Positions 21,683 through 35,218 are shown, numbered from the stretch's first letter. The stretch is 64,000 bases of DNA from an uncultured Chloroflexia bacterium (GCA_963749705.1 CAVVNQ010000003.1:320001-384000), one strand, 5' to 3'. Notes: generated by a model not told the origin, from the sequence alone. Translations and numbers: made by a program.

Positions 21683-23125
21683 TCAGGTCCGGCGGAGGAC
21701 CTCGCGCGCCGCGTGCCAGCCGCTCATCCCGTGCACGCCCCCACCCGGCGGCGTCGAGGACGAGCACAGGAACAGCCCAGGATCCGGCGTCGTGTACGGG
21801 TTCCAGCGGAGGACCGGCCGGAACAGCAGCTGGCGGATGTCCTGGATCCCGCCGTTGATGTCACCGCCGATGTAGTTCGCGTCATACGCCTCCATCGCGG
21901 CCGGGTCACGGGTGGACCGTGCGAGGACCAGATCCCGGAAGCCGGGAGCGAAGCGCTCCACCTGTGTCTCGATCACCTCGGCCATGTCCGCGGTCGAGCC
22001 GTTCGGCACGTGGCAGTACGCCCATGCGACGTGCTTCCCCTCGGGGGCCCGCGACGGATCCGCGATGGTCGGCTGGACGAGCAGCACGAACGGGCGATCG
22101 GTGGTTCGGCCCCGCGAGATCGCGGCCTCTCCCCGGGCCATCTCGTCCAGCGTGCCGCCCAGGTGCACCGTCCCGGCCCGCGCCGTGCGCGCGTCCTGCC
22201 ATGGGATCGGGCCGTCGAGCGCCCAATCAACCTTGAACACGCCCGGCCCGTACCGATACCGCTCGAGCCCGCGTCGATAGCCGCCGGCCAGCCGGTCGCC
22301 GGCGATGGCCAGCACCTGGCGCGGCGTGAGGTCCATGACGATCGTTCGCGCCGGGGGCAGCCCGGCCAGCGACTCGACCCGGTGGCCGGTCACGATCTGG
22401 ACCCCCAGCGATCGGGCTTCGGCCTCGAGCATGTCCACGATCCGCCCGCTGCCGCCTCGAGCCACCGGCCACCCGACGGCGTGCGCGAGCGCCGCGAGCA
22501 CGAGCCCGAACGTACCCGTGAGCGGGCGGTCGAGGCGCAGCATCGAGTGGGCGGCGAGGCCCGCGAACAGCGCTCGCGTTCCGGCGTCGCGAAACGCGAG
22601 CCGGGTGAGCGCCGTGGCCGGCAGCAGGCCGGGCAGCCCGAAGCGGGCCATCAGGATCGGATGGCGCGGCGGCCTGACGACCGGACCGAGCACCGCGGGC
22701 ATCAGCCGCTCCCATTCGCGAACCAGGGGACCCACCAGGCGCCGCCAGGCGGTCGCGTCGCGGGCGGACCAGCCCGACGCATCGAGGGCGTCGAGATCGC
22801 GCTCGAGGAGGACGCTCCGGCCCGGCGTGAGCGCGTGCGCCACGGGCGCCTCGGGCTGCACCCACTCGAGGCCGTGGCGGGCCGCGTCCAGGCTGCGCAT
22901 GAACGGTGACGCGAGCGCCAGCGGGTGGACCGCCGAGCACGGGTCGTGGATGAAGCCAGGCAGCGTCAGCTCGGCGGAGCGCGACCCGCCGCCGACCGTG
23001 TCGGCGGCTTCGTACAGGCGGACCGAACGACCGGCCCGGGCCAGCTCGATCGCGGCGGCGAGCCCGTTTGGCCCGCCGCCGATCACGATCGCGTCGAGTG
23101 CGCTCGAGCCGCCTCCGGCAGTCAT
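21683..23125 (-). CDS. FAD-dependent oxidoreductase, phytoene desaturase-like
   Basis: GGGPNGLAAA, HDPCSAVHP and CSSSTPPGGGVHGMSG motifs. Confidence 0.88.
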   Translation of the reverse strand: MTAGGGSSALDAIVIGGGPNGLAAAIELARAGRSVRLYEAADTVGGGSRSAELTLPGFIHDPCSAVHPLALASPFMRSLDAARHGLEWVQPEAPVAHALTPGRSVLLERDLDALDASGWSARDATAWRRLVGPLVREWERLMPAVLGPVVRPPRHPILMARFGLPGLLPATALTRLAFRDAGTRALFAGLAAHSMLRLDRPLTGTFGLVLAALAHAVGWPVARGGSGRIVDMLEAEARSLGVQIVTGHRVESLAGLPPARTIVMDLTPRQVLAIAGDRLAGGYRRGLERYRYGPGVFKVDWALDGPIPWQDARTARAGTVHLGGTLDEMARGEAAISRGRTTDRPFVLLVQPTIADPSRAPEGKHVAWAYCHVPNGSTADMAEVIETQVERFAPGFRDLVLARSTRDPAAMEAYDANYIGGDINGGIQDIRQLLFRPVLRWNPYTTPDPGLFLCSSSTPPGGGVHGMSGWHAAREVLRRT

Positions 23126-23144
23126 GTGCCCATGGTGACGGCGA

Positions 23145-23915
23145 TCAGCCGACCGCGCGCCGCCGACGAACCCACCTGGCCGGTGCCGTGACCGTGCCGA
23201 TCGCCATGTTCACGGCGGCGCTGTGGCGCAGGTTGCGGACGTACCGCCACTGTCGCTTGCGATCGACGCACACCTTGCGCGCGGTCACCTCGGGCACAAC
23301 GACGCCAACGGCGCGCGCCAGGTTCTCCAGCGTCTGCTCCCAGAAGTGGTCGTTGGAGCGGTTGGCGCCGAACATGTAGGTGAGCTCGATGAACGGGTCG
23401 CTGGTGCGCTCCAGCGCCTGCGCCTGGGCGATGGTCGTGTCGCCGTCGCGGAAGGCCGAGAACGTGATCCAGGCCGACAGGGCGTGGCCCTCGGGCGTCA
23501 TGAACGTGAACGACTCGTTGTCGGCATAGATGACCATCACGCCGGTCGACATCTTGACCGGCGATCCGGGCACCGGCGCGATCTCGAGCAGGGCGACCTC
23601 GCCGGGCTTGATCCCGGACAGCGGTGCATAGAACCGCGCGCCCTTGGGCCAGAAGGTCGGGAAGCGCTCCTTCCAGAACGCGACCAGCGCCTCGGGCGTC
23701 ATGTCCACGCCGTCGAGACGGACGCTGAACGTCTTCTGCCACATCTGGCCGAAGCCCTGGACGGGCCCGGCGACACGGCGCCCGGTGACCGTGTCCATGC
23801 CGGTGGTGACGGCCGTCGTCGACAGCCTGGTGACGGGGTGCGCCCAGGCGTCCGTATCGCGACGGGCCGGGTTGGTGGCGGTGTCGGTGGGGGGATTGGT
23901 GGGGGACGCGGACAT
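23145..23915 (-). CDS. Hypothetical protein at the end of the STAS/PP2C operon
   Basis: GGAGG RBS before MSASPTN; contains QGFGQMWQKT and TPEGH...AWITFS; co-oriented directly after the STAS genes. Confidence 0.7.
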   Translation of the reverse strand: MSASPTNPPTDTATNPARRDTDAWAHPVTRLSTTAVTTGMDTVTGRRVAGPVQGFGQMWQKTFSVRLDGVDMTPEALVAFWKERFPTFWPKGARFYAPLSGIKPGEVALLEIAPVPGSPVKMSTGVMVIYADNESFTFMTPEGHALSAWITFSAFRDGDTTIAQAQALERTSDPFIELTYMFGANRSNDHFWEQTLENLARAVGVVVPEVTARKVCVDRKRQWRYVRNLRHSAAVNMAIGTVTAPARWVRRRRAVG

Positions 23916-23937
23916 CTCGTTACCTCCGATCGTCCGG

Positions 23938-24279
23938 TCAGGCCGAGGCGGCCGCGAGCGCGGCGCTCTCGTCGTCGTGGATACCGATCGCCTCGTCAAG
24001 GCGTGTCAGGGCCAGGATCTGGCGGTAGTGGTCGGACAGCCCGATCGCGTGCAGCCGCTGTCCCGCGCGCTGCGCCCGGACAAGGAGCGTGACCAGGAGG
24101 CCGATGCCACCGCTGTTCATGTACTCGAGGTCGCCGAAGTCGAGGACGACCGAGCGGACACCGGACCCGGCCCGGCCGTAGGCGTCCATCAGCACCTCCT
24201 CGCTGGCGCCCGTGATCTCGCCGTGGATCCGCAGGATGGTCGCCGACCCCGCGGGCACGATGTCGATGGTGGTGCTCAT
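23938..24279 (-). CDS. STAS anti-sigma-factor antagonist (RsbV/SpoIIAA-like)
   Basis: LDFGDLEYMNSGGIGLLV with the phospho-acceptor Ser; YRQILALTRL. Confidence 0.9.
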   Translation of the reverse strand: MSTTIDIVPAGSATILRIHGEITGASEEVLMDAYGRAGSGVRSVVLDFGDLEYMNSGGIGLLVTLLVRAQRAGQRLHAIGLSDHYRQILALTRLDEAIGIHDDESAALAAASA

Positions 24280-24638
24280 CGAGCCGCCTCCTCAAGCTGG
24301 CCGGCCGCGGGCTCCGGGTCGGCGATGGTCAGGTAGTCCGAGAGCCGGGTGATCCGGAAGATCTCCCGGTAGTGGTCCGAGAGGCCGACCGCGATGACCT
24401 CGCGATGGTCGCGCCGCGCCTCGGCCAGGAGCCGGACGATGAGCGCGATGCCGGTCGAGTTGATGTAGTCCACGGTCCCGAAGTCGAGCACCAGGCGCGT
24501 GGCGCCGGCATCGACCGCCGCCCGATAGGCGCCGCTCAATGTCTCGTCGGCCGCGATGTCCACGTCGCCGCGCATCGCGAGGCGGACCTCCCCCGGGCTT
24601 GCCGCGATGACCTCGATGTCGAGTCGTTGCTTGTCCAT
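24276..24638 (-). CDS. STAS anti-sigma-factor antagonist (second copy)
   Basis: LDFGTVDYINSTGIALIV; YREIFRITRL. Confidence 0.9.
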   Translation of the reverse strand: MDKQRLDIEVIAASPGEVRLAMRGDVDIAADETLSGAYRAAVDAGATRLVLDFGTVDYINSTGIALIVRLLAEARRDHREVIAVGLSDHYREIFRITRLSDYLTIADPEPAAGQLEEAAR

Positions 24639-24653
24639 CGTGGTTCTCCCTCT

Positions 24654-26297
24654 TCAGCGCCCGTCCCGGGCGAGGGTGAGCGTGACCGTCTGCAGCCCAT
24701 CGGCGAAGTGCACGTCCATCCCGTCCACCATGTGGCGGATCAGGAACAGCCCCCAGCCACGCGGCTTCTGACGGCCCTCGAGCTTGGCATCGAGATCAGG
24801 CGCCTCGACATCGGGCACCGGACCGGACAGGGCGCGGTCGGTGACACGCACCCGGATCTCCCTGGCATCCGCGTCCACGCGGACGTCGACCGGGATGTCG
24901 GGGTTGCCCTGTGACCCGTACTCGATCGCGTTCATCACCGTCTCAGCGACCGCGGTCTTGAGCCGTTCCAGACGGCTCTCGGTGAGTCCGAGCGGTGCCA
25001 CGGCCTTGGCCACGCGCGTCATCGCGTCGCGCTCGTTGCCGATCGCACCCTCGATCGTGAACGCGATCAGGGCGTCGTCCGACGCGGTGGGCGCCGGTGC
25101 GTCATCGCGCGTCAGCTCGACCTCGGGGCGCACCTCGGACCAGCCGGCGGTGCCCGCGGAGCGCTGGAGAGCGACCAGCGTGATGTCGTCCTCCTGCTCG
25201 ATGACCGGACCCTGGAACTCCTTTAGCCCGACCAGCAGCCGGTCCAGCAGCTCGGTGCCGGCGTCGTCACCCTCCATCGCCTGGCGCAGACGAGGGAAGC
25301 CGTACATCTCGCGGTCCGGTCCGTGCTGCTCCACGACCCCGTCCGAGTAGAGGAGCATCCCCTCGCCCGGTCCGACGACGCCCTCGGCCTCCTCGTAGGT
25401 GATGTCCGGCATCAACCCCAGCGGCAGCCCGGTCGCCCGGAGCTCCGTGACGCCGCCCTCGGTTCGGACGTAGGGCAGGTTGTGACCGGCATTGGCGAAC
25501 CGGAAGCGGCCGACCGCTGGCTCCAGGACGCCATACAGGCAGGTCACGAACATCTTGGCCGGCATCTCGGGGACCAGCAGCTCGTTCGCACGAGCGAGCA
25601 CCTTGCCGGGGTCGACCAGGCGGGGGGCCTCGGCCCGGAGGATCGAGTGTGTCCGGGCCATGACGAGGGCGGCCGGGACGCCCTTGTCGGTGACGTCGCC
25701 GACGACGACACCGATACGGCCATCGCCGAGGTCGATGAAATCGTAGAAGTCGCCGCCGACGACCCGTGCCGGGCCGTAGTAGGCCGCGATCTGCCACTCC
25801 GGCAGGTTGGGCAGCTGGCGCGGCAGGAACTGCTGCTGGATGAGCTGCGCGACCTTGAGCTCCTGCTCGTAGCGCTCGCGCTCCGCGGCCTCGGCGGCCT
25901 GCTCGCGCACCAGCTGGGCGACGCGGATCGCGGGCGCTGCCTGCGCGGCGAGCGTCGCCAGGAGCCGGCGGTCATCCGTCGAGTAGTCCTGCTCGGAGAG
26001 GCGGGGCCCGAGGTTGAGGGTCCCGATGAGCTCGCCCTGGGTGACCAGCGGCACGACCAGCGCGACGCCGGCGTCGCGCAGCGCCTGGAGCGCCGGCGAC
26101 GCGAGCTCCAGCTTCGACAGATCGACCGGACCGGGCGCCGCCTGCAGGAACGCGAACAGCGGATCGGTCTCGGGGATGTCGATCGCCACGCCGGGCTGGT
26201 CGACCAGGGTCGGTGCCGCGGCGGCGGGCGCCGCCTCGTCGACCGCCTGGGCGTGTCCGCTGCGGAGACGGCGGAATGGACGGGTCAGGGCTGTCAT
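24654..26297 (-). CDS. Partial GAF + SpoIIE/RsbU PP2C phosphatase + RsbW-like HATPase domain
   Basis: VVPLVTQGELIGTLNL...LLATLAAQAA (GAF C-part); VGGDFYD, GDVTDKGVPAA, NAGH, LYSDGV and EDDIT (PP2C); AVAETVMNAIEYG and RGWGLFLI (HATPase_c). Alternative start at 26315. Confidence 0.9.
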   Translation of the reverse strand: MTALTRPFRRLRSGHAQAVDEAAPAAAAPTLVDQPGVAIDIPETDPLFAFLQAAPGPVDLSKLELASPALQALRDAGVALVVPLVTQGELIGTLNLGPRLSEQDYSTDDRRLLATLAAQAAPAIRVAQLVREQAAEAAERERYEQELKVAQLIQQQFLPRQLPNLPEWQIAAYYGPARVVGGDFYDFIDLGDGRIGVVVGDVTDKGVPAALVMARTHSILRAEAPRLVDPGKVLARANELLVPEMPAKMFVTCLYGVLEPAVGRFRFANAGHNLPYVRTEGGVTELRATGLPLGLMPDITYEEAEGVVGPGEGMLLYSDGVVEQHGPDREMYGFPRLRQAMEGDDAGTELLDRLLVGLKEFQGPVIEQEDDITLVALQRSAGTAGWSEVRPEVELTRDDAPAPTASDDALIAFTIEGAIGNERDAMTRVAKAVAPLGLTESRLERLKTAVAETVMNAIEYGSQGNPDIPVDVRVDADAREIRVRVTDRALSGPVPDVEAPDLDAKLEGRQKPRGWGLFLIRHMVDGMDVHFADGLQTVTLTLARDGR

Positions 26298-26395
26298 GGC
26301 CGCATCCTCATGCATGAACGTCCGGACATCGTTACGAACAACCGTGATTGTTCAACATCGTCACGCACCGCCGAGTCGTCAATGGTGAACGTCAC
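26294..26395 (-). CDS. Possible 33-aa coupling micro-ORF (VTFTIDDSAVRDDVEQSRLFVTMSGRSCMRMRP)
   Basis: GTG overlaps the sensor A stop (GTGA) and TGA overlaps the PP2C ATG (ATGA). It spans the operator, so it may be fortuitous. Confidence 0.25.
   Translation of the reverse strand: MTFTIDDSAVRDDVEQSRLFVTMSGRSCMRMRP
26319..26336 (-). promoter_or_regulatory. Heptamer direct-repeat operator, copy 1 (CGTAACG-atgt-CCGGACG)
   Basis: Followed 9 nt later by GAGGAT (-10-like), then 6 nt to the PP2C ATG. Matches copies 2 and 3. Confidence 0.65.
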
Positions 26396-27588
26396 TGCCC
26401 TGCCTCCTGCCGGCTGCGCAGCCACAGCCCCGCGTGGATCGGACGGACCGTCTCGTCGACGGTGGCCAGTGCCTCGCGCTCGATGGACGCCAGCCCGACC
26501 TCGTCCCGCAGACGCTCGGCAAAGGCATCGACGGTGCGCTGCCCGTCGTACCTGGCCCGGTCGAACCGGCGGTCGACCCCAGCCTGGATCCGCCGCCGCA
26601 AGGGCTGGAACAGCGCGAACGCGACCAGCGTGGACCCGGCGACCGCCAGCGTCTCGCCCTGGGTGAACCCCGCGAGCAGCGCCTGCAGGGCGAGCACCAG
26701 ACCTACGAACACCGCCGCCAGGATCCCGGTCACCAGCGCCCAGCCGATCGTGCGGCTGATGAGCCGGTCGATCTCGTACAGCCGGTACCGGAGGACCGCG
26801 ATGCCGATGGCGATGGGGAGGAAGGCGAAGGCGAGCATCAGCAGCGACCATGACCAGGTGTTCTGGAACATGGCGAGAACCAGCACCGACGCGGCGAGCA
26901 GGACGATCCCTGCCACGAACCACTTGAGCTGCTCGCGCTCGGCCCCAGCAGCCCTGCGGAACCGCATCACGACTGCGCCGACGGCGACCGCGAGCAGGAT
27001 CCCCATGGTGACCGTGGCCGCGCCCCCGATCAGCCTCAGAACGCCTTCATCCGAGCCTGTGGGGGTGACGAGGGCGACGGTTGTGATCGCGGCCACCACG
27101 CCCACGATCCGCCACCGAGGTCCTGGTAGCCGCCCATCCGGGAACAGGAGCGGGAGCCACACGGCCAGGAGTGGGTACGCGAGCCCCGAGAGCGTGGGCG
27201 CCAGCGAGTCAAGCAGCCGATATCCGGGAAGGGCTGGCCCAACGATCGTGCTTCGCTCCACGTAGGCTTCCGTGAAGTCCCCGAGAATCAGGCTCACCCC
27301 CCCGACCAGCAGGATCCAGCCGATCGGATTGCGCGGTCGAAGCACCACGAGGATCGCTCCGACGACGGGCAGGCTCAGAGAAGCCGCAACGGACGAGGCG
27401 ATGGCGATGAGGTCCGTCGCGTCCTGCGCGCCAATGGACAGCTGCTCGTGTCCCGGCAGGATGGCCGAGGCGAACATGAACCCCACCATGCCCAGGGCGA
27501 TGAGGAGCAGGGCGACCGCGAGCCAGGTGGTGGGCCGGCGTCGGGCGGGGACGGCAGGTTCGGGGCGGGTGACGCGGGCTGCCGTCAC
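26392..27588 (-). CDS. Membrane sensor paralog A (multi-TM, ends with a GAF N-terminal fragment, no output domain)
   Basis: RPRNPIGW, LFPDGRLPGPRWR, REQLKWF, LRYRLYEIDRLISRT, RRRIQAGVDRRFDR and terminal VRPIHAGLWLR. Confidence 0.85.
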   Translation of the reverse strand: MTAARVTRPEPAVPARRRPTTWLAVALLLIALGMVGFMFASAILPGHEQLSIGAQDATDLIAIASSVAASLSLPVVGAILVVLRPRNPIGWILLVGGVSLILGDFTEAYVERSTIVGPALPGYRLLDSLAPTLSGLAYPLLAVWLPLLFPDGRLPGPRWRIVGVVAAITTVALVTPTGSDEGVLRLIGGAATVTMGILLAVAVGAVVMRFRRAAGAEREQLKWFVAGIVLLAASVLVLAMFQNTWSWSLLMLAFAFLPIAIGIAVLRYRLYEIDRLISRTIGWALVTGILAAVFVGLVLALQALLAGFTQGETLAVAGSTLVAFALFQPLRRRIQAGVDRRFDRARYDGQRTVDAFAERLRDEVGLASIEREALATVDETVRPIHAGLWLRSRQEAGQ

Positions 27589-28802
27589 CGGCCCGCCCCC
27601 TGGCGCTCGCGCAGCCACAGCCCGACCGCGGCCGGACGCACGGCAGCGTCGACCGTGGCCGGGACCTCGGCCCGAATGGTCTCGAGATCGACCTGGTCGC
27701 GCAGCCGCTCGCTGAACGCCCCGACGAGCTGCTGCCCGTCGTACCGGGCCCGGTCGAACCGGCGGTCGACCCCAGCCTGGATCCGCCGCCGCAGGGGCTG
27801 GAACAGCGCGAACGCCGCCAGGGTGGACGCCGCCACCGCGAGCGTCTCGCCCTGGGTGACGCCAGCCAACAGCGCCTGCAGCCCGATCACCAGACCTACG
27901 AACACGGCCGCCAGGATCCCGGTCACCAGCGCCCAGCCGATGGTCCGGCTGATCAGCCGGTCGATGTCGTACAGCCGGTACCGCAGGATCGCGATGCCGA
28001 TGGCGATGGGGATCGCGATCATCCCGAGCATGAAGAGGTAGAAGGCCAGCTCATTGCCCGTCGCTCCGGCGATGGGGAGCACGATCGCCATGTAGCCGGC
28101 GGCCGCCAGGAACCACTTGAGCTGCTGGCGCTCGGGACCGCGGGATCGCCGGTAACGAACGATCACTGCCGCGATCGCCACGAGGATCCCGACGAGGAAG
28201 AAGACGCCCAGCGCCTTGAGGGCATCGGTCACGGGACCGTCGGCGGCAATCGGGTTGGGCAGGATCCCGTCGGTCGTCAGCGCCTCGACCGCGACCTGAC
28301 TGGCGGTACCGATGGCGGCCACCCAGGCGACAGGGCGCCAGTGCGAGCCTGGCAGGTGACCATCCGGGAACAACATGGGGACCCAGATCACGGCCAGCCC
28401 GACTGCAGCGGTGATCGACCAGGAAGCAACCCAGTCGACCAGGCGATAGCCGGGCAGGTCGGCACCCAGCCCGACGCTCCGACCGACATACTCCCAGGAG
28501 AAGACGTAGATGGAGAAGCCGAACCCGATCAGGAGGAACAGCCAGCCGATCGGGTTGGATGGCTGGCGAACGGCGAGGATCGCGCCAACGGCAGGCGACG
28601 TGAGGAGCACGCCCAGCACGACCGGGGCACTGACCGGCCCGAGCGGGTTGGTCTCGCCAGGTCGACCGGCCAGCTGCTCGGTACCTGGCAGGACCGCGAG
28701 GACGAACGCGAAGCACACCATTCCGACGGTGCTCGCCAGCAGGACGCCGGCAGCCCAGACCCCAGGCCGTCGCCACGTTGTCCCGGAGAGACCGCCGGTC
28801 AT
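27585..28802 (-). CDS. Membrane sensor paralog B
   Basis: Same motifs as A, ending VRPAAVGLWLRERQGAGR. Its stop overlaps the GTG of A. Confidence 0.85.
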   Translation of the reverse strand: MTGGLSGTTWRRPGVWAAGVLLASTVGMVCFAFVLAVLPGTEQLAGRPGETNPLGPVSAPVVLGVLLTSPAVGAILAVRQPSNPIGWLFLLIGFGFSIYVFSWEYVGRSVGLGADLPGYRLVDWVASWSITAAVGLAVIWVPMLFPDGHLPGSHWRPVAWVAAIGTASQVAVEALTTDGILPNPIAADGPVTDALKALGVFFLVGILVAIAAVIVRYRRSRGPERQQLKWFLAAAGYMAIVLPIAGATGNELAFYLFMLGMIAIPIAIGIAILRYRLYDIDRLISRTIGWALVTGILAAVFVGLVIGLQALLAGVTQGETLAVAASTLAAFALFQPLRRRIQAGVDRRFDRARYDGQQLVGAFSERLRDQVDLETIRAEVPATVDAAVRPAAVGLWLRERQGAGR

Positions 28803-28864
28803 CGTCGGCTGCGGTTGAGCGGCTGCTTCGGCTGGCGCGCCACAGGCGCCTCGTTCATCGGCAT
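28799..28864 (-). CDS. 21-aa leader micro-ORF (MPMNEAPVARQPKQPLNRSRR)
   Basis: AGGAGG SD 7 nt before the ATG; TGA overlaps the ATG of paralog B (ATGA). Confidence 0.5.
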   Translation of the reverse strand: MPMNEAPVARQPKQPLNRSRR

Positions 28865-28951
28865 CGGTGGACCTCCTGCGCGGATGCCGCGCGCATCGCC
28901 TGGACACCCATGGTCGGCCGCCATCGCAACCCCTGACCTCGCTGGGGGCAC

Positions 28952-28986
28952 GCCCGGGCCCTCATGTTCCTCAGGAGGGCCCGGGC
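28952..28986 (-). terminator. GC-rich hairpin downstream of the secreted-protein gene
   Basis: GCCCGGGCCCTC-N11-GAGGGCCCGGGC, a 12-bp inverted repeat with no U-tract. Confidence 0.45.
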
Positions 28987-29013
28987 CGTTCCCTATCGCG
29001 GGCGAGAGGTGAC

Positions 29014-29433
29014 CTACACGTGAGTGCCGAGAGCCGCCGTGTAGATCTGGACCGCCGCGGGGAACCAGTCGCCGAGATGGTCGACCCCCTTGCCGTCAGC
29101 GGCGTGCTTGTCCATGGCCGGCGTGCCTTCGGCAATGGTGTGGTTACCGATGAAGATCGAGAACTCGTTCGGCATACCCGCCGCCCTCGCCTCGCCGACA
29201 GCCCACGCGAGCTGGCTGTCCGACAGGGGTGGAAGGCCGGTCTCGTCGGCCAGGAGCCCAAACAGCTCAGACAGGCTCCCGATGTAGACCCACGCACGCG
29301 AGTGGGTGCCTGCCGTCACGGTGCCAGTATCCGACCGGCTGGCGATGAAGCACTCGTGTCCGAGCGCGGTTCCGGCGCCGAGGGTGGCGATCAGCGTTCC
29401 GGCGAGGATCGAGCGGGCGAGAATGCGACGCAT
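29014..29433 (-). CDS. Small secreted hypothetical protein (139 aa)
   Basis: GGAGG RBS; signal peptide MRRILARSILAGTLIATLGAGTALG|HECF; C-terminal DGKGVDH. Confidence 0.75.
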   Translation of the reverse strand: MRRILARSILAGTLIATLGAGTALGHECFIASRSDTGTVTAGTHSRAWVYIGSLSELFGLLADETGLPPLSDSQLAWAVGEARAAGMPNEFSIFIGNHTIAEGTPAMDKHAADGKGVDHLGDWFPAAVQIYTAALGTHV

Positions 29434-29496
29434 CGGTGGCCTCCAGCTGCGGCAGCTCCAGGGGGCGGGCTGCGTAGCCAGAGTCAACCGGTCGCG

Positions 29497-29514
29497 CGTC
29501 CCGAAATCGTTACG
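29497..29514 (-). promoter_or_regulatory. Heptamer direct-repeat operator, copy 2 (CGTAACG-attt-CGGGACG)
   Basis: Upstream of the secreted-protein gene; TTGACT 9 nt downstream. Confidence 0.65.
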
Positions 29515-29571
29515 GAGGCCAGGATCTTGGGTTGCGCATCGCGGACCGCTTGAGGCGCTAGACGCGACGAA

Positions 29572-30786
29572 TCATGAGGCGCCTCCGCCGGAATGCCGGA
29601 TCCAGACCGACGCTCCGCTCGGTCCCAGGGACCGGACGATGGCCGCGATGGCACCTTCGGTGACCTCGTTCAGGTCGGTGACGCCCTGGAGATGCGCTGC
29701 AAAGCCGCCGACCGTCTGCTCCGCGTCGTACCGACTGCGGTTGAAGCGACGGTCGACGGCGGCCTGGATCCGCCGGCGTGCCGGCTGGAACAGGGCGGCG
29801 GCCGCCAGCGTCGAGGCGGCGACCGCGAGGCTGCTCTCGCTGGTCACCGGGGCGAGCAACGCCTGGAGGGTAACGATCAGCCCGGCGAACAGCGCCCCGA
29901 TGAGGCCGGTCGTGAGCGCCCAGCCGACAGTTCGGCTGACGATCCGGTCGATGTCCCACAGGTGGTAGCGGAGGATCGCGATCCCGATCGCGATGGGCAG
30001 CAGCGGCAGCATCGCCAGTCCCAGAGCCCAGGCGGCGTCCGAGATCGGCCCGTTGTTCGGGAGCGAGATCACGAACGTCACCACGGCGACGCTCGCGACG
30101 AGGCCAAACCATTTGAGCTGCTGGCGCTCGACAGCCGCCGCCTGCCGGTAGCGCAGGAACACACTGATCACCGCGCCTCCGAAGAAGACCGGCGTGGCGA
30201 GGTTGGAGACCAGGGTGACGATCGCGAGCACGTCGGTCGCTCCCGCGATCCCGAGCGGGTTCCGGATCCAGGGTGTGCTCGACAGTGGTCCGGGCGTGAA
30301 CGCCACGGCCAAGGTCCCAAGGATGCCGACCAGGCCGATCCGGCCGAATGCGCGCCAGCGCGGCCCCAGGAAGCGACCGGTCGGAAACAGCAGCGGAAGG
30401 TAGACCAGGAGCATCCCGATCGCGGGCAGGAAGGTCCAGCTCGACAGCCAGGCGATCGGGACCACCAGCGGCAGCCCCGCCGCGAGGTCATGGTCGTAGT
30501 TCACGTACGTGCCGCCGAAGATCCCGATCGCTGCCGCCAGCCCGGACAGCTCGAGCAGCCAGCCAACCGGATTGCCGACCCGGTACGCCACGAAGCCGCC
30601 GACCAGCGTGAGCGAGAGCACGATCGCCGGGAAGATCACGATGAATACAGGCCCGGTCGGCCCGTATTGGTCGAGCGTCGCGATCCCCAGCGGGATCCCC
30701 ACGGCAGTGAACGCAACGGCCACCGCCGCGATCGCCGAGATGATCGCCAGCCGCACTCGCGAGCGGCGCCGACTCCGGATCATCAT
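29572..30786 (-). CDS. Membrane sensor paralog C
   Basis: GNPVGW, LFPTGRFLGPRWR, PWIRNPLGI, RQQLKWF, LRYHLWDIDRIVSRT; ends LGPSGASVWIRHSGGGAS. Confidence 0.85.
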   Translation of the reverse strand: MMIRSRRRSRVRLAIISAIAAVAVAFTAVGIPLGIATLDQYGPTGPVFIVIFPAIVLSLTLVGGFVAYRVGNPVGWLLELSGLAAAIGIFGGTYVNYDHDLAAGLPLVVPIAWLSSWTFLPAIGMLLVYLPLLFPTGRFLGPRWRAFGRIGLVGILGTLAVAFTPGPLSSTPWIRNPLGIAGATDVLAIVTLVSNLATPVFFGGAVISVFLRYRQAAAVERQQLKWFGLVASVAVVTFVISLPNNGPISDAAWALGLAMLPLLPIAIGIAILRYHLWDIDRIVSRTVGWALTTGLIGALFAGLIVTLQALLAPVTSESSLAVAASTLAAAALFQPARRRIQAAVDRRFNRSRYDAEQTVGGFAAHLQGVTDLNEVTEGAIAAIVRSLGPSGASVWIRHSGGGAS

Positions 30787-30878
30787 CGCGCGCGACCTCG
30801 GATCCAGACCGTGCTGAACGCGGGCTGCACGGCGGGGACCGCACACGTGCCGGTGGCGAGTGCCCGGGCCTGCGTCAT
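30783..30878 (-). CDS. 31-aa micro-ORF carrying the sensor C-terminal motif (MTQARALATGTCAVPAVQPAFSTVWIRGRAR)
   Basis: ATGA overlaps at both ends; VQPxxxxVWIR matches the sensor termini. Confidence 0.55.
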   Translation of the reverse strand: MTQARALATGTCAVPAVQPAFSTVWIRGRAR

Positions 30879-32101
30879 CGCGCGATCCCGCCATGACGCG
30901 TCCAGACGCCCACCGACCGGGGCTGCATCGAGCGCGCCACGACGGCCTCCAGGTGCTCGTTGAGGGCCTCGAGCGCCGCGTCGTCGCGCAGCCCGGCCGC
31001 AAAGCCGTCGAGGACACGCTGGGCATCGACATGCGCCCGATTGAACCGCCGGTCGACCGCCGTCTGTACGCCGCGCCGCAACGGTTGGAACACGGCGAAG
31101 GCGACGAGGGTCGCTGAGGCGACGGCGATCGTGCTCTGCCCCGTCAGCCGGCTCAGCAGCACCTGGATGCCAACGACCGTCACCGCGAACAGGACCGCGA
31201 GGACGGCGCTGATGATCAGGTAGCTGATCGTGCGGCTGACGATCCGGTCGATGTCCCAAAGCCGGTAGCGGAGCACCGCGACGCCGGCCGAGATCGGGAT
31301 CCCCAGGATGCCAGCCGTGACCACGTCCTGGGTGAGCTTGTCACCGCCCGGTGGGAGGACGCCGAGCTTGCCCAGCGGGATGACCCAGAACACCAGACCG
31401 CAGACGGCGACGCTGAAGGCAAGCCACTTGAGCTGCTGACGGCTCTCCCCCGTCGCCCGGCGGAATCGAAGCACGAGGGCGCTGGCGCCGATGAAGATGG
31501 CGACGATGAGCGGCATGTAGGCAATCCAGCGCAGCTCGGGTCGGATGCCGATGTCGATGGCGAAGGGGTTGGACAGATAGGCGGCGTTGTCGAGTGGTCC
31601 CGGCAGCAAGGCGGCACCCAGTGTCGCGAGAGCCACGATCGCGACGTCGAGCCCCATGACCAGCCGCCAACGCGAGCTCAGCAGGCGGCCGTCCGGGAAC
31701 ACCAGCGGCAGGAACACGGTCACCAGCGCGATGGCTGGGATCCAGATCCAGCCGGAGACCCAGGCTGCGACCTCCCCTCCCGCATGGGCGCCCGGCTCGG
31801 CGATGAGGGCCAGCGTCGCGTACTGATCGCAGGCGCCCTCCACGGCCGACAGGATGCCGGCGGCCAGGAACAGCCACCCGATCGGGTTTCCCCGTACGCG
31901 GATCACGACGATGGCCCCAATCGCAACGCAGGTGACCGCGATCGCGATCGGAAATCCGCGGACCGACCACGTGCCTGGGACCTCCACCGACCACGTGTTG
32001 GCGAGCAGGCCGATGGCGATCGCGGACAGCGCGCCCGTGAATACGACGCTGGCCGCAGCGAGCAACCGGGACGGGGCGACGCTCGCCGCCGTGACGGTCA
32101 C
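30875..32101 (-). CDS. Membrane sensor paralog D
   Basis: GNPIGW, VFPDGRLLSSRWR, RQQLKWL, LRYRLWDIDRIVSRT; ends MQPRSVGVWTRHGGIAR. Confidence 0.85.
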   Translation of the reverse strand: MTVTAASVAPSRLLAAASVVFTGALSAIAIGLLANTWSVEVPGTWSVRGFPIAIAVTCVAIGAIVVIRVRGNPIGWLFLAAGILSAVEGACDQYATLALIAEPGAHAGGEVAAWVSGWIWIPAIALVTVFLPLVFPDGRLLSSRWRLVMGLDVAIVALATLGAALLPGPLDNAAYLSNPFAIDIGIRPELRWIAYMPLIVAIFIGASALVLRFRRATGESRQQLKWLAFSVAVCGLVFWVIPLGKLGVLPPGGDKLTQDVVTAGILGIPISAGVAVLRYRLWDIDRIVSRTISYLIISAVLAVLFAVTVVGIQVLLSRLTGQSTIAVASATLVAFAVFQPLRRGVQTAVDRRFNRAHVDAQRVLDGFAAGLRDDAALEALNEHLEAVVARSMQPRSVGVWTRHGGIAR

Positions 32102-32238
32102 GGAGTGCCCTGGCCGGGTCGAAGCCAGAGCGCCACGCCCGGACCTTCAGCCGGCCGGCGCAGCATCTGTGCAGCATCGTCGACCAGCCACGGGACCACG
32201 TGGCGACGGCCGGGCACTTGTTGCGGGGACGCGGTCAT
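32098..32238 (-). CDS. 46-aa micro-ORF with the sensor C-terminal motif (MTASPQQVPGRRHVVPWLVDDAAQMLRRPAEGPGVALWLRPGQGTP)
   Basis: ATG 8 nt after the GAGCAT -10 (leaderless geometry); TGA overlaps the GTG of paralog D; ends VALWLR. Confidence 0.55.
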   Translation of the reverse strand: MTASPQQVPGRRHVVPWLVDDAAQMLRRPAEGPGVALWLRPGQGTP

Positions 32239-32261
32239 GGCACCGGATGCTCGGATGACAC

Positions 32262-32279
32262 CGTTCCCGAAACGTTACG
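32262..32279 (-). promoter_or_regulatory. Heptamer direct-repeat operator, copy 3 (CGTAACG-tttc-GGGAACG)
   Basis: In the divergent promoter region between the sensor array and the SARP regulator; GAGCAT 9 nt downstream. Confidence 0.65.
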
Positions 32280-32310
32280 AGATTCCTCGAAAACAAGCTA
32301 CCGTGACGCG

Positions 32311-35218
32311 ATGTCCAGAGAGGTGACTGTGCCACCCGCCCCTCCCGCCCCGGACACCGGGCTCGAGATCCGCGTGCTCGGGCCGCTCGAGGTCCGGGTG
32401 GCCGGCGCGCCGCTCGTCGTGGATACGCGCAAGGCGCTCGCGATCCTCACCCTGCTCGCCGCCGAAGGTCGGCCATTCGCGCGCGAGGAGCTGGCGGCGA
32501 TGCTGTGGCCCGAGTCGGACGACGAATCGGCGCGCGGCGCGCTGCGACGGACGCTGTCCGTGCTCCGCGGGGCCCTCGGAGACCGCTGGATCCGGGTTGA
32601 TCGGTCCACGGTCGCCCTCGACCCGTCGGGAACCTGGGTCGACCTGTCGGCCGTGGAGGCCGCGGGCCCCGAAGCGTCAGGGCCCGCGCTGCGGGAGGCG
32701 GCCGCCGCCGCCAGGGGTCCCTTCCTCGCGGGGTTCGCACTGCGCGACAGCGCTGCGTTCGACGACTGGCGGGCAACGCGGGCGGTCGCGGCGGAGCGAG
32801 CCGTTGCCGGCGTGCTCGATCGGCTCGCGGCGACCGCGGAGGCGGAGGGGGACATCCCGGCCGCCGTCGCCGCCGCAGCACGCCGTGTAGATCTCGATCC
32901 GCTCGACGAGCCTGCGCAGCAACGCCTGATGCGGCTCCTTGCCCGCTCGGGTGACCGGGCGGGCGCAATCCGTCAGTACCGCTCGTGCGTCGCCGTGCTG
33001 GAGCGGGAGCTCGGCGTCTCCCCGCTGGCGGAGACCACGGAGCTGTACGAGGCGATCCGTGACGATCGACCCTCGGCCGCGACCTCGCCGGACGCGCCTG
33101 ACGCACCGACGGCGGCATCGGCTCGACACGGAGATCGCACCCCACCCGTCCCCATCCGGTTGCCACTGGTCGGGCGCGATCGCGATCTGCGTGCCCTCGC
33201 GGATGCCCACCGCGCAGCGGGCATCGACGGGCGCGTCGCCTACGTCACCGGCGAGGCGGGGATCGGGAAGTCGCGCCTCGCCGAGAGCGTTCGCGCCAGC
33301 GTGAACGCGGCTGGCGGCACGGCGCTCATGGCGCGCTCGTTCGCGTCGGAGGCCGGCATCGCCTACGGGCTCATCGTGGAGCTGCTGCGCGTCGGGCTCG
33401 CACGTCCGGACGCCGTCGACCGGCTGCGGGACCTGCCGGACGCCACCGTCGTGGAGCTCGAGCGCCTCGTGCCCATGCCCGCCGATCTGTCGCGCCGCCG
33501 GCCGGTCCGGGAGGTCCGCGCCGGGACCGATGACGGACCGGCAGCGCGGGTCCGCCTGCTGGAAGCCGTCGCAAGCGCCCTCGTTGCGCTCGTGGCCGGA
33601 CCGGTGCCGGGGCTGATCACGGCGGAGGACCTCCAGTGGGCGGACGATGCGTCGCGCGAGTCGCTCACGTGGCTGGGTCGCCGGCTGGCGGGTCGCCCGC
33701 TCCTGCTCGTCCTCACCTGGCGCCCGGAGGATCTCGATGAGCTTGGCAGCGCCTTCGTGGCCACGATCGAGACCCTCCCGGAGGCCGCGCCGATCGCCCT
33801 TCGCCGACTCGAACGCGAGGACGTCGAGCAGCTCGTGGCGGCGGCATCCGTCGCGGGCCAGTCGCCAATGGCCGTCGACGCCCTGCTCCAGGAGAGCGAG
33901 GGCCTGCCCCTGTACGTGGTCGAGGCGCTTGCGACGGGGACCGGCCTCATCGAGGGACCGGCGCGGAGCGTCCGCACGCTGCTCCGGGAACGGCTCGCCT
34001 CGGTCAGCGAGACGGCCGGGCAGGTGCTGTCTGCGGCCGCGGTCATCGGCCGCTCGTTCGACCTGCCCCTCGTGCGGGGAACGAGCGGTCGCTCCGATGA
34101 CGAGACCGTGACGGCGCTCGAGGAGCTGGTGCGGCGCGGCATTGTCCGCGACGTTCCGGCGGCGCCGGAGGTTGCCTTCGACTTCGTCCACGCCAAGCTT
34201 CGCGACGCCGCCTACGAGGCGACCAGCCTCGCCCGCCGCCGGCTGCTCCATCGCCGGACGGCTGAGCTCCTCAGGCTCGATGTCGCGGGCCGTGACGACC
34301 CCGCCCGAATGGTCCAGGTGGCGACCCACGAGCGTGCGGCGGGCCGCGAGGCGGAGGCTGCGGAGGCGTTCCGCCAGGCCGGGGTGCGCGCCCGGGCGCT
34401 GTTCGCGAATCGCGAGGCAGCCTCGCATCTCGAGACGGCGATCGCGCTGGGACATCCGGACGGAGCCGCGATCCAGATCCTGCTGGGCGAGGTCCGGACC
34501 GCCCTGGGCGACTACACCGGGGCCATCGCCGCGCTCGAGGCCGCTGCCGCGGCGGCCTCGGACGACGACCTTCCGGGGGTCGAGCTTCGGCTCGGGAGGG
34601 TGCACGCGCGCCGGGGCGACCTCGCGACCGCGGCCAGCCACCTTGACGCGGCGGTCGCGACGCTCGAGCTCGGGGAGACGGCTGCCGGCTCCCGGGTCCT
34701 CGTGCGGGCGCTGGTCGAGCGGGCGGTGGTGGCGCATCGTGCGGGTGAGCTCGACCTCGCCCAGCTGGCGGCCGCTCGCGCGCTCGGCATCGCGCAGGCC
34801 GCCAACGACGATCCGGGCGCCGGTGCGGCCCATCGGCTCCTGGGGCTCATCGCCCGCGAGACGGGTGACCTGGACGCCGCCCGCGCGTCCCTCGAGCAGA
34901 GTCTCGACGCTGGCAGCCACCGATCCGGACGCCGGGGCGGCGATCGCGGCCCGCAACGCACTGGCCCTCGTGGAGGCAGCCGCCGGCGACAGGGCGGCCG
35001 CGATGGCGCTTCTCGAGGAAGCCCTCGTCGAATGCCGGCGGACCGGCGAGCGCCACCTTGAAGCCGCGGTTGAGAACAGCCTCGCGGACCAGCTGCACGC
35101 GTTGGGCCGGATCGACGAATCGATGGCCCACCTCAAGCAGGCGGTGGCGATCTTCGCCGAGGTCGGAGGGAATCCCGGTGAGCTTGAGCCGGAGATCTGG
35201 AAGCTCGTCGCCTGGTAG
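32311..35218 (+). pseudogene. SARP/BTAD + STAND AAA ATPase + TPR transcriptional activator, interrupted by a +1 frameshift near 34906
   Basis: IRVLGPLEV, REELAAMLWP, GPFLAG, DPLDEPA, GEAGIGKSRL, EDLQWAD and TPRs. The C-terminus (…EPEIWKLVAW) continues in the +1 frame after AGT CTC G ACG CTG. This could be an assembly error. Confidence 0.8.

Follow-up and report, generated by a model that had tools for sequence, protein, structure and literature searches.

The window analysed here, a 64,000-nt stretch of about 70% G+C from an uncultured Chloroflexia bacterium (GCA_963749705.1 CAVVNQ010000003.1:320001-384000), carries a gene cluster for four membrane proteins that we regard as putative sensors, one soluble phosphatase/kinase and two STAS proteins. 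Our comparisons support the view that a single GAF domain is divided between the sensors and the enzyme. All genes of the cluster are on the minus strand, as third-position GC analysis and tables of open reading frames (ORFs) indicate, and they follow each other in transcription order as sensor D, sensor C, a small ORF, sensor B, sensor A, a 94-nt spacer, the phosphatase/kinase, the two STAS genes and a gene of 256 codons. The source is described as a soil/freshwater Chloroflexota genome; judging from the names on near-identical proteins and contigs, the host is a member of 'Candidatus Limnocylindrales' (Chloroflexota). Its genome, which we searched as a whole for relatives of both partners, comprises 3.6 Mb on 22 contigs and is 88% complete. 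The features on which the division of the domain bears are the following.

Sensor D, 30875-32101, minus strand: polytopic membrane protein of about 408 residues in an ORF with high third-position GC; C-terminus SVGVWTRHGGIAR
Sensor C, 29572-30786, minus strand: paralogue of about 404 residues; C-terminus GASVWIRHSGGGAS
Sensor B, 27585-28802, minus strand: paralogue of about 405 residues starting with MTGGLS, with an alternative upstream GTG at 28907; C-terminus AVGLWLRERQGAGR
Sensor A, 26392-27588 (or up to 27618), minus strand: paralogue of about 398 residues with a probable GTG start; C-terminus HAGLWLRSRQEAGQ
Cytoplasmic tail of sensor A, 26395-26610, minus strand: 72 residues, consisting of the juxtamembrane motif and then helix alpha1 and strand beta1 of a GAF-like domain
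Spacer, 26298-26391, minus strand: 94 nt that separate the stop of sensor A from the start of the phosphatase
Phosphatase/kinase, 24654-26297, minus strand: soluble protein of 547 residues
N-terminal peptide of the phosphatase, 26253-26297, minus strand: MTALTRPFRRLxGRS, conserved, in split forms
Half-GAF of the phosphatase, 25902-26195, minus strand: residues 35-132
STAS protein 1, 24276-24638, minus strand: anti-sigma-factor antagonist type (PF01740, PF13466, TIGR00377)
STAS protein 2, 23938-24279, minus strand: PF01740, TIGR00377

A sequence-only reading of this DNA had described four paralogous membrane proteins of about 400 residues that lack any output domain and all end at the same point, and Pfam and the translations bear this out. 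Sensors A-D have no Pfam match above threshold and no GAF match at E ≤ 0.1, and A and D have no NCBIfam match either. By Pfam they also lack a STAS domain, whereas a stressosome sensor would be recognised by a C-terminal STAS domain together with an RsbT-like kinase. Sensors B, C and D are 55%, 43% and 41% identical to sensor A. In all four, the polypeptide runs from an RRRIQ..VDRRF.R..YD motif through a helix to a short W-L/I/T-R strand, and the stop codon follows 7-8 residues later (C-termini GLWLRSRQEAGQ, GLWLRERQGAGR, SVWIRHSGGGAS and GVWTRHGGIAR). An alignment of 114 such tails (alignment A1) shows P3, R5, Q9, D13, R14, R15, F16, R18 and W63 to be invariant, and W63, P57, R65 and R35 to be 90-100% conserved. 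The number of four holds for the cluster, but the genome as a whole contains seven tail-terminated sensors with a common end point, three of them unlinked, and a single half-GAF protein. The unlinked genes (C3:418028-419302 and C6:126035-127564 on the minus strand, C2:112417-113874 on the plus strand) have housekeeping neighbours, namely a LytR-like protein, lipoyl synthase with 2-oxoacid dehydrogenase E2, and FtsH. Among the seven paralogues, mean pairwise identity is 21-44% in the N-terminal two-thirds and rises to 57-73% across the final membrane helices and juxtamembrane motif. Among 1.84 billion entries, 11890 cluster representatives matched a tail profile at E ≤ 0.001, of which 8455 remained at E ≤ 1e-10, fused forms included, and in 131 of the best 150 matches the protein ended at most 15 residues past the match. 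Many longer homologues of sensor A carry HisKA_3 and HATPase_c (PF07730 and PF02518); neither is present in the window sensors, which stop after beta1.

The soluble protein opens with a conserved peptide and a variable linker, continues with the C-terminal portion of a GAF domain and a long helix, and ends with PP2C and an RsbW-like HATPase_c_2 domain. The SpoIIE profile PF07228 matched with E 1.1e-47 and 162.9 bits (cut-off 25) over its positions 2-191 of 192, and the PP2C motifs GGDFYD, GDVTDKG and EDDITLV can be read directly in the sequence. The kinase domain matched HATPase_c_2 (PF13581) with E 1.7e-19 and 70.5 bits (cut-off 27.4) over positions 11-126 of 127, but its matches to the NCBIfam SpoIIAB and RsbW equivalog models fell far under the cut-offs; it is therefore a family member and not an equivalog. 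Phosphatase residues 63-130 match PF01590 at positions 64-133 of 133 only, and GAF_2 (91-135 of 136) and GAF_3 (70-127 of 129) are likewise matched in their C-terminal portions only. A match to a whole GAF profile (PF01590, PF13185, PF13492) was thus found neither in the phosphatase nor in any of the four sensors. The half-GAF, PP2C and RsbW-like domains of the sequence-only reading hence stand, except that the DPLFAFLQ segment, which it took for the start of the protein, begins at residue 45. When the phosphatase N-terminus was used as a query for a second N-truncated GAF protein in the host genome, only ordinary multi-GAF proteins were returned.

The N-terminal part of the enzyme is strongly conserved. 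Over residues 1-190, the 120 best database clusters show 80-94% identity, and almost all of them have a length of 530-570 residues; the half-GAF is nearly unchanged across 101 aligned sequences. In the same 101 sequences, P7 and R10 of the N-terminal peptide are invariant, and M1, T2, A3, R6, R9 and R14 are at least 90% conserved. No equivalent of this peptide was seen in the linkers of the six fused proteins that we read (see below). MTALTRPFRRL may be a docking motif acquired after the gene was split.

Two STAS genes, as had been noted, follow the phosphatase/kinase directly, and Pfam and TIGR00377 confirm their assignment (STAS protein 1: PF01740 with E 1.4e-11, PF13466 with E 3.1e-12; STAS protein 2: PF01740 with E 2.6e-12). 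STAS genes are present in 65 of 67 related loci. Both proteins have a serine in an N-S-T/G-G-I loop by sequence reading, presumably the phosphorylated position. The locus hence has STAS antagonists beside a phosphatase/kinase, as partner switching implies, and has no sigma factor: none of the 39 window ORFs scanned belongs to a sigma-factor family, in line with the earlier statement for the cluster, while the rest of the genome was not searched.

One line of evidence for a divided domain comes from single-chain relatives. Searches for longer relatives of sensor A and for relatives of P0066 yielded fused proteins of 750-930 residues in which the same membrane domain is followed by GAF and then SpoIIE (P0251, P0247, P0352, P0350 and P0066, as well as P0248, which additionally has HATPase_c_2). 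In other single-chain relatives, GAF is followed by a histidine kinase or a cyclase. The fused proteins read RRRIQ..DRRFYR.KYD, a helix, VSLWLR, a variable linker of about 10-40 residues, EIAPNDP and then VPLVSQGELxGxLNLGPRLSxQEYSxDD..LL. The window sensors end within the variable linker, and the phosphatase resumes at GVAIDIPETDPLF. In four of the five fused proteins scanned (P0251, P0066, P0247, P0352), PF01590 spans both parts at positions 1-132 or 1-133; in P0248 it aligned at positions 7-133. Furthermore, a fused-GAF profile of 172 positions, made from 24 natural fused proteins, matched the extreme C-termini of the sensors at positions 1-66 (A, residues 341-406 of the 408-residue reading), 1-64 (B), 1-63 (C) and 1-62 (D), and phosphatase residues 35-132 at positions 75-172, without overlap with the sensors. 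The proposal that one GAF fold is distributed over some 50 residues at the C-terminal ends of the sensors and some 130 at the N-terminal end of the phosphatase is hence upheld by fused homologues and by non-overlapping profile matches, and the natural fusions, with PF01590 running from 1 to 132 across both parts, provide the Rosetta-stone evidence for it. Gene fission through the GAF domain is well supported by these alignments. Four further chains of 800-1400 residues (P0017, P0025, P0008 and P0002), which resemble sensor-sensor or sensor-phosphatase fusions, were considered as Rosetta-stone cases and rejected; they contain out-of-frame stretches or read through neighbouring genes, and appear to be gene-calling artefacts on indel-rich assemblies.

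The split is kept across species. A scan with one genome per species gave 67 loci, 64 of which contain the enzyme N-terminus and 61 of these more than 3 kb of upstream sequence. Two to eight same-strand sensor genes lie just upstream of the phosphatase gene in 59 of the 61 (three sensors in 19 loci, two in 12, five in 11, four in 9, eight in 4, six in 3 and seven in 1). The two exceptions are a frameshift-ridden assembly and a locus with its sensors downstream. Of 229 sensor ORFs, 211 end at most 10 residues past the match to sensor A, so that the split point, too, is conserved. Measured from stop to start, the last sensor and the phosphatase are separated by -4 to 1277 nt, with 35 nt as the commonest value and 34-38 nt as the usual one, and the relative frame is 0, 1 and 2 in 15, 19 and 25 loci. 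No genuine sensor-phosphatase fusion was found among the related loci; L028 and L061, which had looked like fusions, are frameshift-fragmented assemblies spread over several frames. In the window itself, sensor A and the phosphatase are in different frames and 94 nt apart, as the sequence-only reading had it, and the phosphatase has its own ATG at 26297 with GAGGA 7 nt upstream. Variable gaps and all three frames in 59 of 61 loci rule out a simple broken gene, and programmed recoding is very unlikely on the same comparison. As far as sequence comparison reaches, these data show that an ancestral membrane sensor-GAF-PP2C chain was cut after beta1 of GAF, that the cut is old and maintained, and that the membrane half multiplied while the enzyme stayed single.

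A likely promoter had also been placed between sensor A and the phosphatase, and this part of the earlier description is not supported. We detected neither a consensus promoter nor a terminator in the 94-nt spacer, and the corresponding gap of most relatives measures just about 35 nt. Over 23000-32400, the scan returned no sigma-70-like promoter, with 0.5 expected by chance, although Chloroflexota promoters may not fit the consensus; the terminator scan of the same region gave one site, inside sensor A, with 2.0 expected, and neither outcome is telling.

Sensors and enzyme also occur together across genomes. We sampled 201 genomes of the class, which are related and not independent. The half-GAF N-terminus was present at E ≤ 1e-10 in 45 of them (13 of 43 genera), and a match to sensor A at E ≤ 1e-15 in 84. 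In 43 of the 45 positive genomes the enzyme is single, with one match. All but one of the 45 have a sensor match at a best E ≤ 1e-43, the exception being 70% complete. Some sensor match is present in 40 of the 156 enzyme-negative genomes, and in four of them it reaches E ≤ 1e-40, a cut-off that was picked after data inspection. Weaker matches include other architectures on the same membrane domain, such as L081. With 44 of 45 against 4 of 156 genomes, the co-occurrence of these sensors with an N-truncated-GAF enzyme is as a divided domain would lead one to expect. These tallies include five unpublished genomes (G067, G091, G106, G112 and G151) and read 41 of 42 and 4 of 154 without them. In the four enzyme-negative genomes with close sensors (G019, G028, G037 and G196), no half-GAF partner was detected; the best half-GAF match of G028 is a histidine kinase with a complete GAF, and the sensors of G196 and G028 are on short contigs or contig ends. 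The orphan sensors of G019 (L078:1501-2727) and G037 (L080:1501-2835) end with SLWLRP and SLWLRR, and their juxtamembrane motif (RFYRxKYD and RFYRRRYD) looks closer to that of the single-chain proteins.

Structure prediction agrees with an incomplete domain in the enzyme. The AlphaFold2 model of the phosphatase alone had a mean predicted local distance difference test score (pLDDT) of 78.7 from an alignment of 101 rows. Residues 1-35 are disordered in this model, and the N-terminal peptide has a pLDDT of about 30. They are followed by helices 46-53 and 68-75, a hairpin of strands 80-86 and 89-95, and a helix 107-157 that leads into PP2C. The model lacks alpha1-beta1 and has a single hairpin, and it is therefore not a complete GAF; that the PP2C N-terminus folds as a full GAF by itself, which would have spoken against a split, is hence not what AlphaFold2 predicts. 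The GAF fold has a central antiparallel sheet of five to six strands that is flanked by N- and C-terminal helices. In the fused P0251, modelled with a mean pLDDT of 88.9 from 52 rows and with about ten membrane helices, alpha1 (373-388) and beta1 (393-397) belong to the same GAF-like domain, with pLDDT 94-95. The following loop, residues 398-425 with pLDDT 58-69, is the place of the split, and past it come helices, a hairpin and a long helix that match those of the split enzyme. The matches listed in a PDB structure search with the P0251 model all fall within residues 480-767, i.e., linker and PP2C, and bear on that part alone; the PP2C of this fused homologue superimposed on 3ke6 (Rv1364c) with a Z of 26.5 and a root-mean-square deviation of 2.6 Å over 221 residues. 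For a complex prediction, phosphatase residues 1-150 and the 72-residue tail were entered, each with its own alignment. The score was 0.54 compared with 0.01 for the best control, which amounts to weak support from modelling. The mark applied is reached by 116 of 157 solved complexes and by 2 of 215 mismatched pairs. The runs agreed in at least 74% of contacts, and the pLDDT of the partner was at least 54.

Taken together, independent comparative lines support the split-GAF reading. We consider it probable that, after an ancestral fission, the half-GAF of the enzyme is completed by the sensor tails, so that many inputs reach one enzyme. The locus would then be a partner-switching-type signalling operon of a Limnocylindrales bacterium. 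On this reading, an ancestral sensor-GAF-PP2C chain was cut in the variable loop after alpha1 and beta1; its membrane half kept alpha1-beta1 as a C-terminal tail and then multiplied, to four copies here, seven in the genome and two to eight per locus, and its soluble half kept the remainder of GAF, followed by the long linker helix, PP2C and the RsbW-like kinase. The half-GAF would be incomplete by itself, and a sensor tail would insert alpha1-beta1 into it, tethering the enzyme to the sensor and the membrane and restoring the alpha1/alpha5 helix pair. The rebuilt domain could signal through the long coiled-coil helix to PP2C dimerisation and activity, like in other GAF- or PAS-linked PP2C enzymes. 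Control via a dimerising coiled-coil linker has been described for RsbU and proposed for PP2C phosphatases with N-terminal GAF, PAS or receiver domains (PMC12143880). Depending on each sensor's state, the enzyme would lean towards dephosphorylating or towards phosphorylating the two STAS proteins, and signals of divergent sensors, competing for or sharing one enzyme, would converge on one output.

Completion of the GAF domain in trans, with the putative sensors being interchangeable, is plausible. More tentatively, we propose a plug-and-socket type of signalling, in which divergent receptors share an alpha1-beta1 plug and compete for, or alternate at, a single phosphatase/kinase socket. It is an equally cautious suggestion that new inputs might in this way be added by duplication of a receptor gene, and that several signals might be integrated on one enzyme.

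Several observations weigh against completion by the tails. At 34-35% identity among the seven paralogues, the alpha1-beta1 tail is rather variable for parts that all fit one socket. The modelled GAF is a reduced one, with three main strands compared with five or six in the canonical fold. The complex prediction gives weak support for an association of the tail with phosphatase residues 1-150 and came without an interface read-out, so that completion of the GAF sheet is not readable from the pose; moreover, at scores of 0.60 or below lie just 18 of the 157 solved complexes together with both of the mismatches that passed. P0020, an apparent in-frame join on a single 3.5-kb contig, runs without a change of frame from a sensor through the complete N-terminal extension into a split-type phosphatase, and its Pfam GAF match covers positions 62-133 only and does not reach the tail. 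Orphan sensors in G019 and G037, both 91% complete, lie beside unrelated genes, and the tail may hence have a function of its own. Finally, the genome counts stem from related, non-independent genomes.

Some of these observations suit an alternative in which the fission did occur but the two parts have ceased to complete each other. The half-GAF would then be a vestigial dimerisation or linker element, the tails would pair with each other or with something else, and co-regulation or some indirect link would account for the gene order. It would accommodate the orphan sensors with intact tails in two genomes without a detected enzyme, the three of seven host sensors that are unlinked to the operon, the divergence of the tails among paralogues and the weak complex prediction. 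It would also agree with a half-GAF core (residues 41-90) that is modelled with pLDDT 84-90 without a partner. However, a vestigial half would hardly leave close sensors in 44 of 45 enzyme-positive but 4 of 156 enzyme-negative genomes, sensors directly upstream in 59 of 61 loci, a tail end kept in 211 of 229 ORFs and a W63 invariant in 114 tails. The 80-94% identity of enzyme residues 1-190 in more than 100 clusters, which includes the split-specific peptide, argues for a conserved binding function. We thus regard this alternative as unlikely, though it is the most serious competitor of completion by the sensor tails.

A narrower alternative is that the adjacent sensor A alone pairs with the enzyme, and that the other paralogues have other partners or act by themselves. 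Sensor A is directly upstream, the last sensor of related loci usually ends 34-38 nt before the phosphatase start, and the divergence of the tails would be explained as well. On the other hand, all seven sensors share the end point, the query with the phosphatase N-terminus found no other N-truncated GAF protein in the host genome, and arrays contain two to eight sensors, whereas 43 of 45 genomes have just one such enzyme. This makes a sensor A-only pairing a rather improbable case. That the split is an assembly frameshift, a pseudogene or the product of programmed frameshifting or read-through is largely refuted by the comparison of loci and has hardly any probability left, since P0017, P0025, P0008 and P0020, which join sensor and phosphatase in one chain, and the frameshifted regulator gene nearby are outweighed by 59 of 61 loci from different species with gaps of -4 to 1277 nt in all three frames, by the phosphatase's own ATG with GAGGA upstream and a conserved Met-Thr-Ala-Leu-Thr, and by the indel-type out-of-frame stretches of P0017, P0025 and P0008 and the fragmentation of L028 and L061.

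Among known systems, the single-chain sensor-GAF-PP2C proteins of other Chloroflexota and Rubrobacter (P0251, P0247, P0352 and P0305), annotated as 'SpoIIE family protein phosphatase' or 'serine phosphatase RsbU', are the closest relatives. They share with the window system the membrane domain, the RRRIQ..DRRF..YD motif, the GAF-like domain and PP2C, at 49-57% identity (alignment A3). Unlike them, the window system is cut after GAF beta1, has an amplified membrane half and has gained the N-terminal peptide. The RsbW-like kinase of the window enzyme also occurs in the partial protein P0248. The closest characterised enzyme core is Rv1364c of Mycobacterium tuberculosis (3ke6), with PAS, PP2C, RsbW-like kinase and STAS in one chain; it is likewise a PP2C fused to an anti-sigma-type kinase, with STAS as substrate. 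Rv1364c is referred to as a general-stress-response phosphatase with an N-terminal PAS (PMC12143880). In contrast to its complete, covalently attached PAS and its fused STAS, the window system has a GAF divided between two genes and free-standing STAS proteins.

With regard to logic, the Bacillus subtilis stressosome (RsbRA-RD, RsbS, RsbT and the PP2C RsbU) comes closest, as several paralogous sensors there feed one PP2C. Stressosome sensors are soluble, form a STAS-domain scaffold and act via the released kinase RsbT. Both systems combine divergent inputs with a conserved output part and a PP2C that acts on a STAS antagonist, but the window sensors are membrane proteins without STAS, and the coupling proposed for them is the completion of a divided domain. 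RsbU is activated by RsbT (PMC12143880).

Two-chain reassembly of sensory modules has reportedly been engineered, in split reporters from the PAS-GAF part of bacterial phytochromes. These are man-made, cut at other sites and have no signalling role, whereas the split in the window is natural. Full-text literature searches on split GAF domains and on GAF gene fission gave no precedent for a natural split GAF, and none of the papers found on signal transduction in Limnocylindria deals with this system, judging by title or abstract. The parts are ordinary, namely PP2C/SpoIIE, an RsbW-type kinase, STAS antagonists and a GAF-linked membrane sensor. The system differs from those known in that a sensory domain is divided between genes, with the donor half amplified and no sigma factor encoded nearby. 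GAF and PAS sensory domains are usually treated as indivisible modules that are covalently joined to their outputs; here, many species of one lineage have retained a bisected GAF domain, and the membrane half alone has been multiplied. Should the two parts reassemble, many inputs would be connected with a single output in a novel manner, comparable to stressosome and chemoreceptor arrays but by a different physical principle. It would then be a case of natural split-domain complementation, with possible reuse in synthetic biology. The finding also supplies a large group of unannotated, 'output-less' membrane proteins with a candidate partner.

Three further genes belong to the locus or its surroundings.

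Small ORF, 29014-29487, minus strand: 157 residues with a signal-peptide-like N-terminus, between sensors C and B
DUF1990-like gene, 23145-23915, minus strand: 256 residues, at the operon end
BTAD + AAA_16 + TPR regulator, 32200-35218, plus strand: divergent, AfsR/SARP-like architecture by Pfam

The 256-residue protein has no Pfam or NCBIfam match; the Atlas clusters closest to it bear the name DUF1990 family (score 0.97-0.99), which we take as a lead only. In 63 of 67 loci, a DUF1990-like gene comes after the STAS genes, so that its product may also be a component of the system. In 55 of 67, a relative of the BTAD regulator lies upstream of the sensors and is encoded on the other strand. By their position, the divergent BTAD/AAA/TPR regulator and the DUF1990-like protein are candidates for the target of the STAS proteins. 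Loci without STAS, DUF1990-like, BTAD or CrtI/CrtO-like genes are mostly cut by contig ends. In this assembly, the regulator has a frame shift near 34905-34917, and homologues align across two frames; three of them align continuously, in one frame to about residue 919-983 and then in another. The frame change is either an assembly indel or a real frameshift.

The small ORF has no Pfam or NCBIfam family and a relative in only 2 of 67 loci, e.g., L017:9310-9807 between the last sensor and the phosphatase gene; by this distribution, it is not a conserved part of the system. At 27585-27588, the TGA stop of sensor B overlaps the possible GTG start of sensor A (GTGA), which suggests translational coupling of the neighbouring sensor genes. 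Two loci with a Limnocylindrales-type enzyme, L075 and L068, come from metagenome-assembled genomes labelled Streptosporangiaceae and 'Candidatus Angelobacter', and their placement could be due to mis-binning or gene transfer; L075 has its sensors downstream of the operon. Directly downstream of the operon in the window lies a CrtI/CrtO-like FAD oxidoreductase (21683-23125, minus strand) that has a relative in 61 of 67 loci and may be part of the same conserved neighbourhood.

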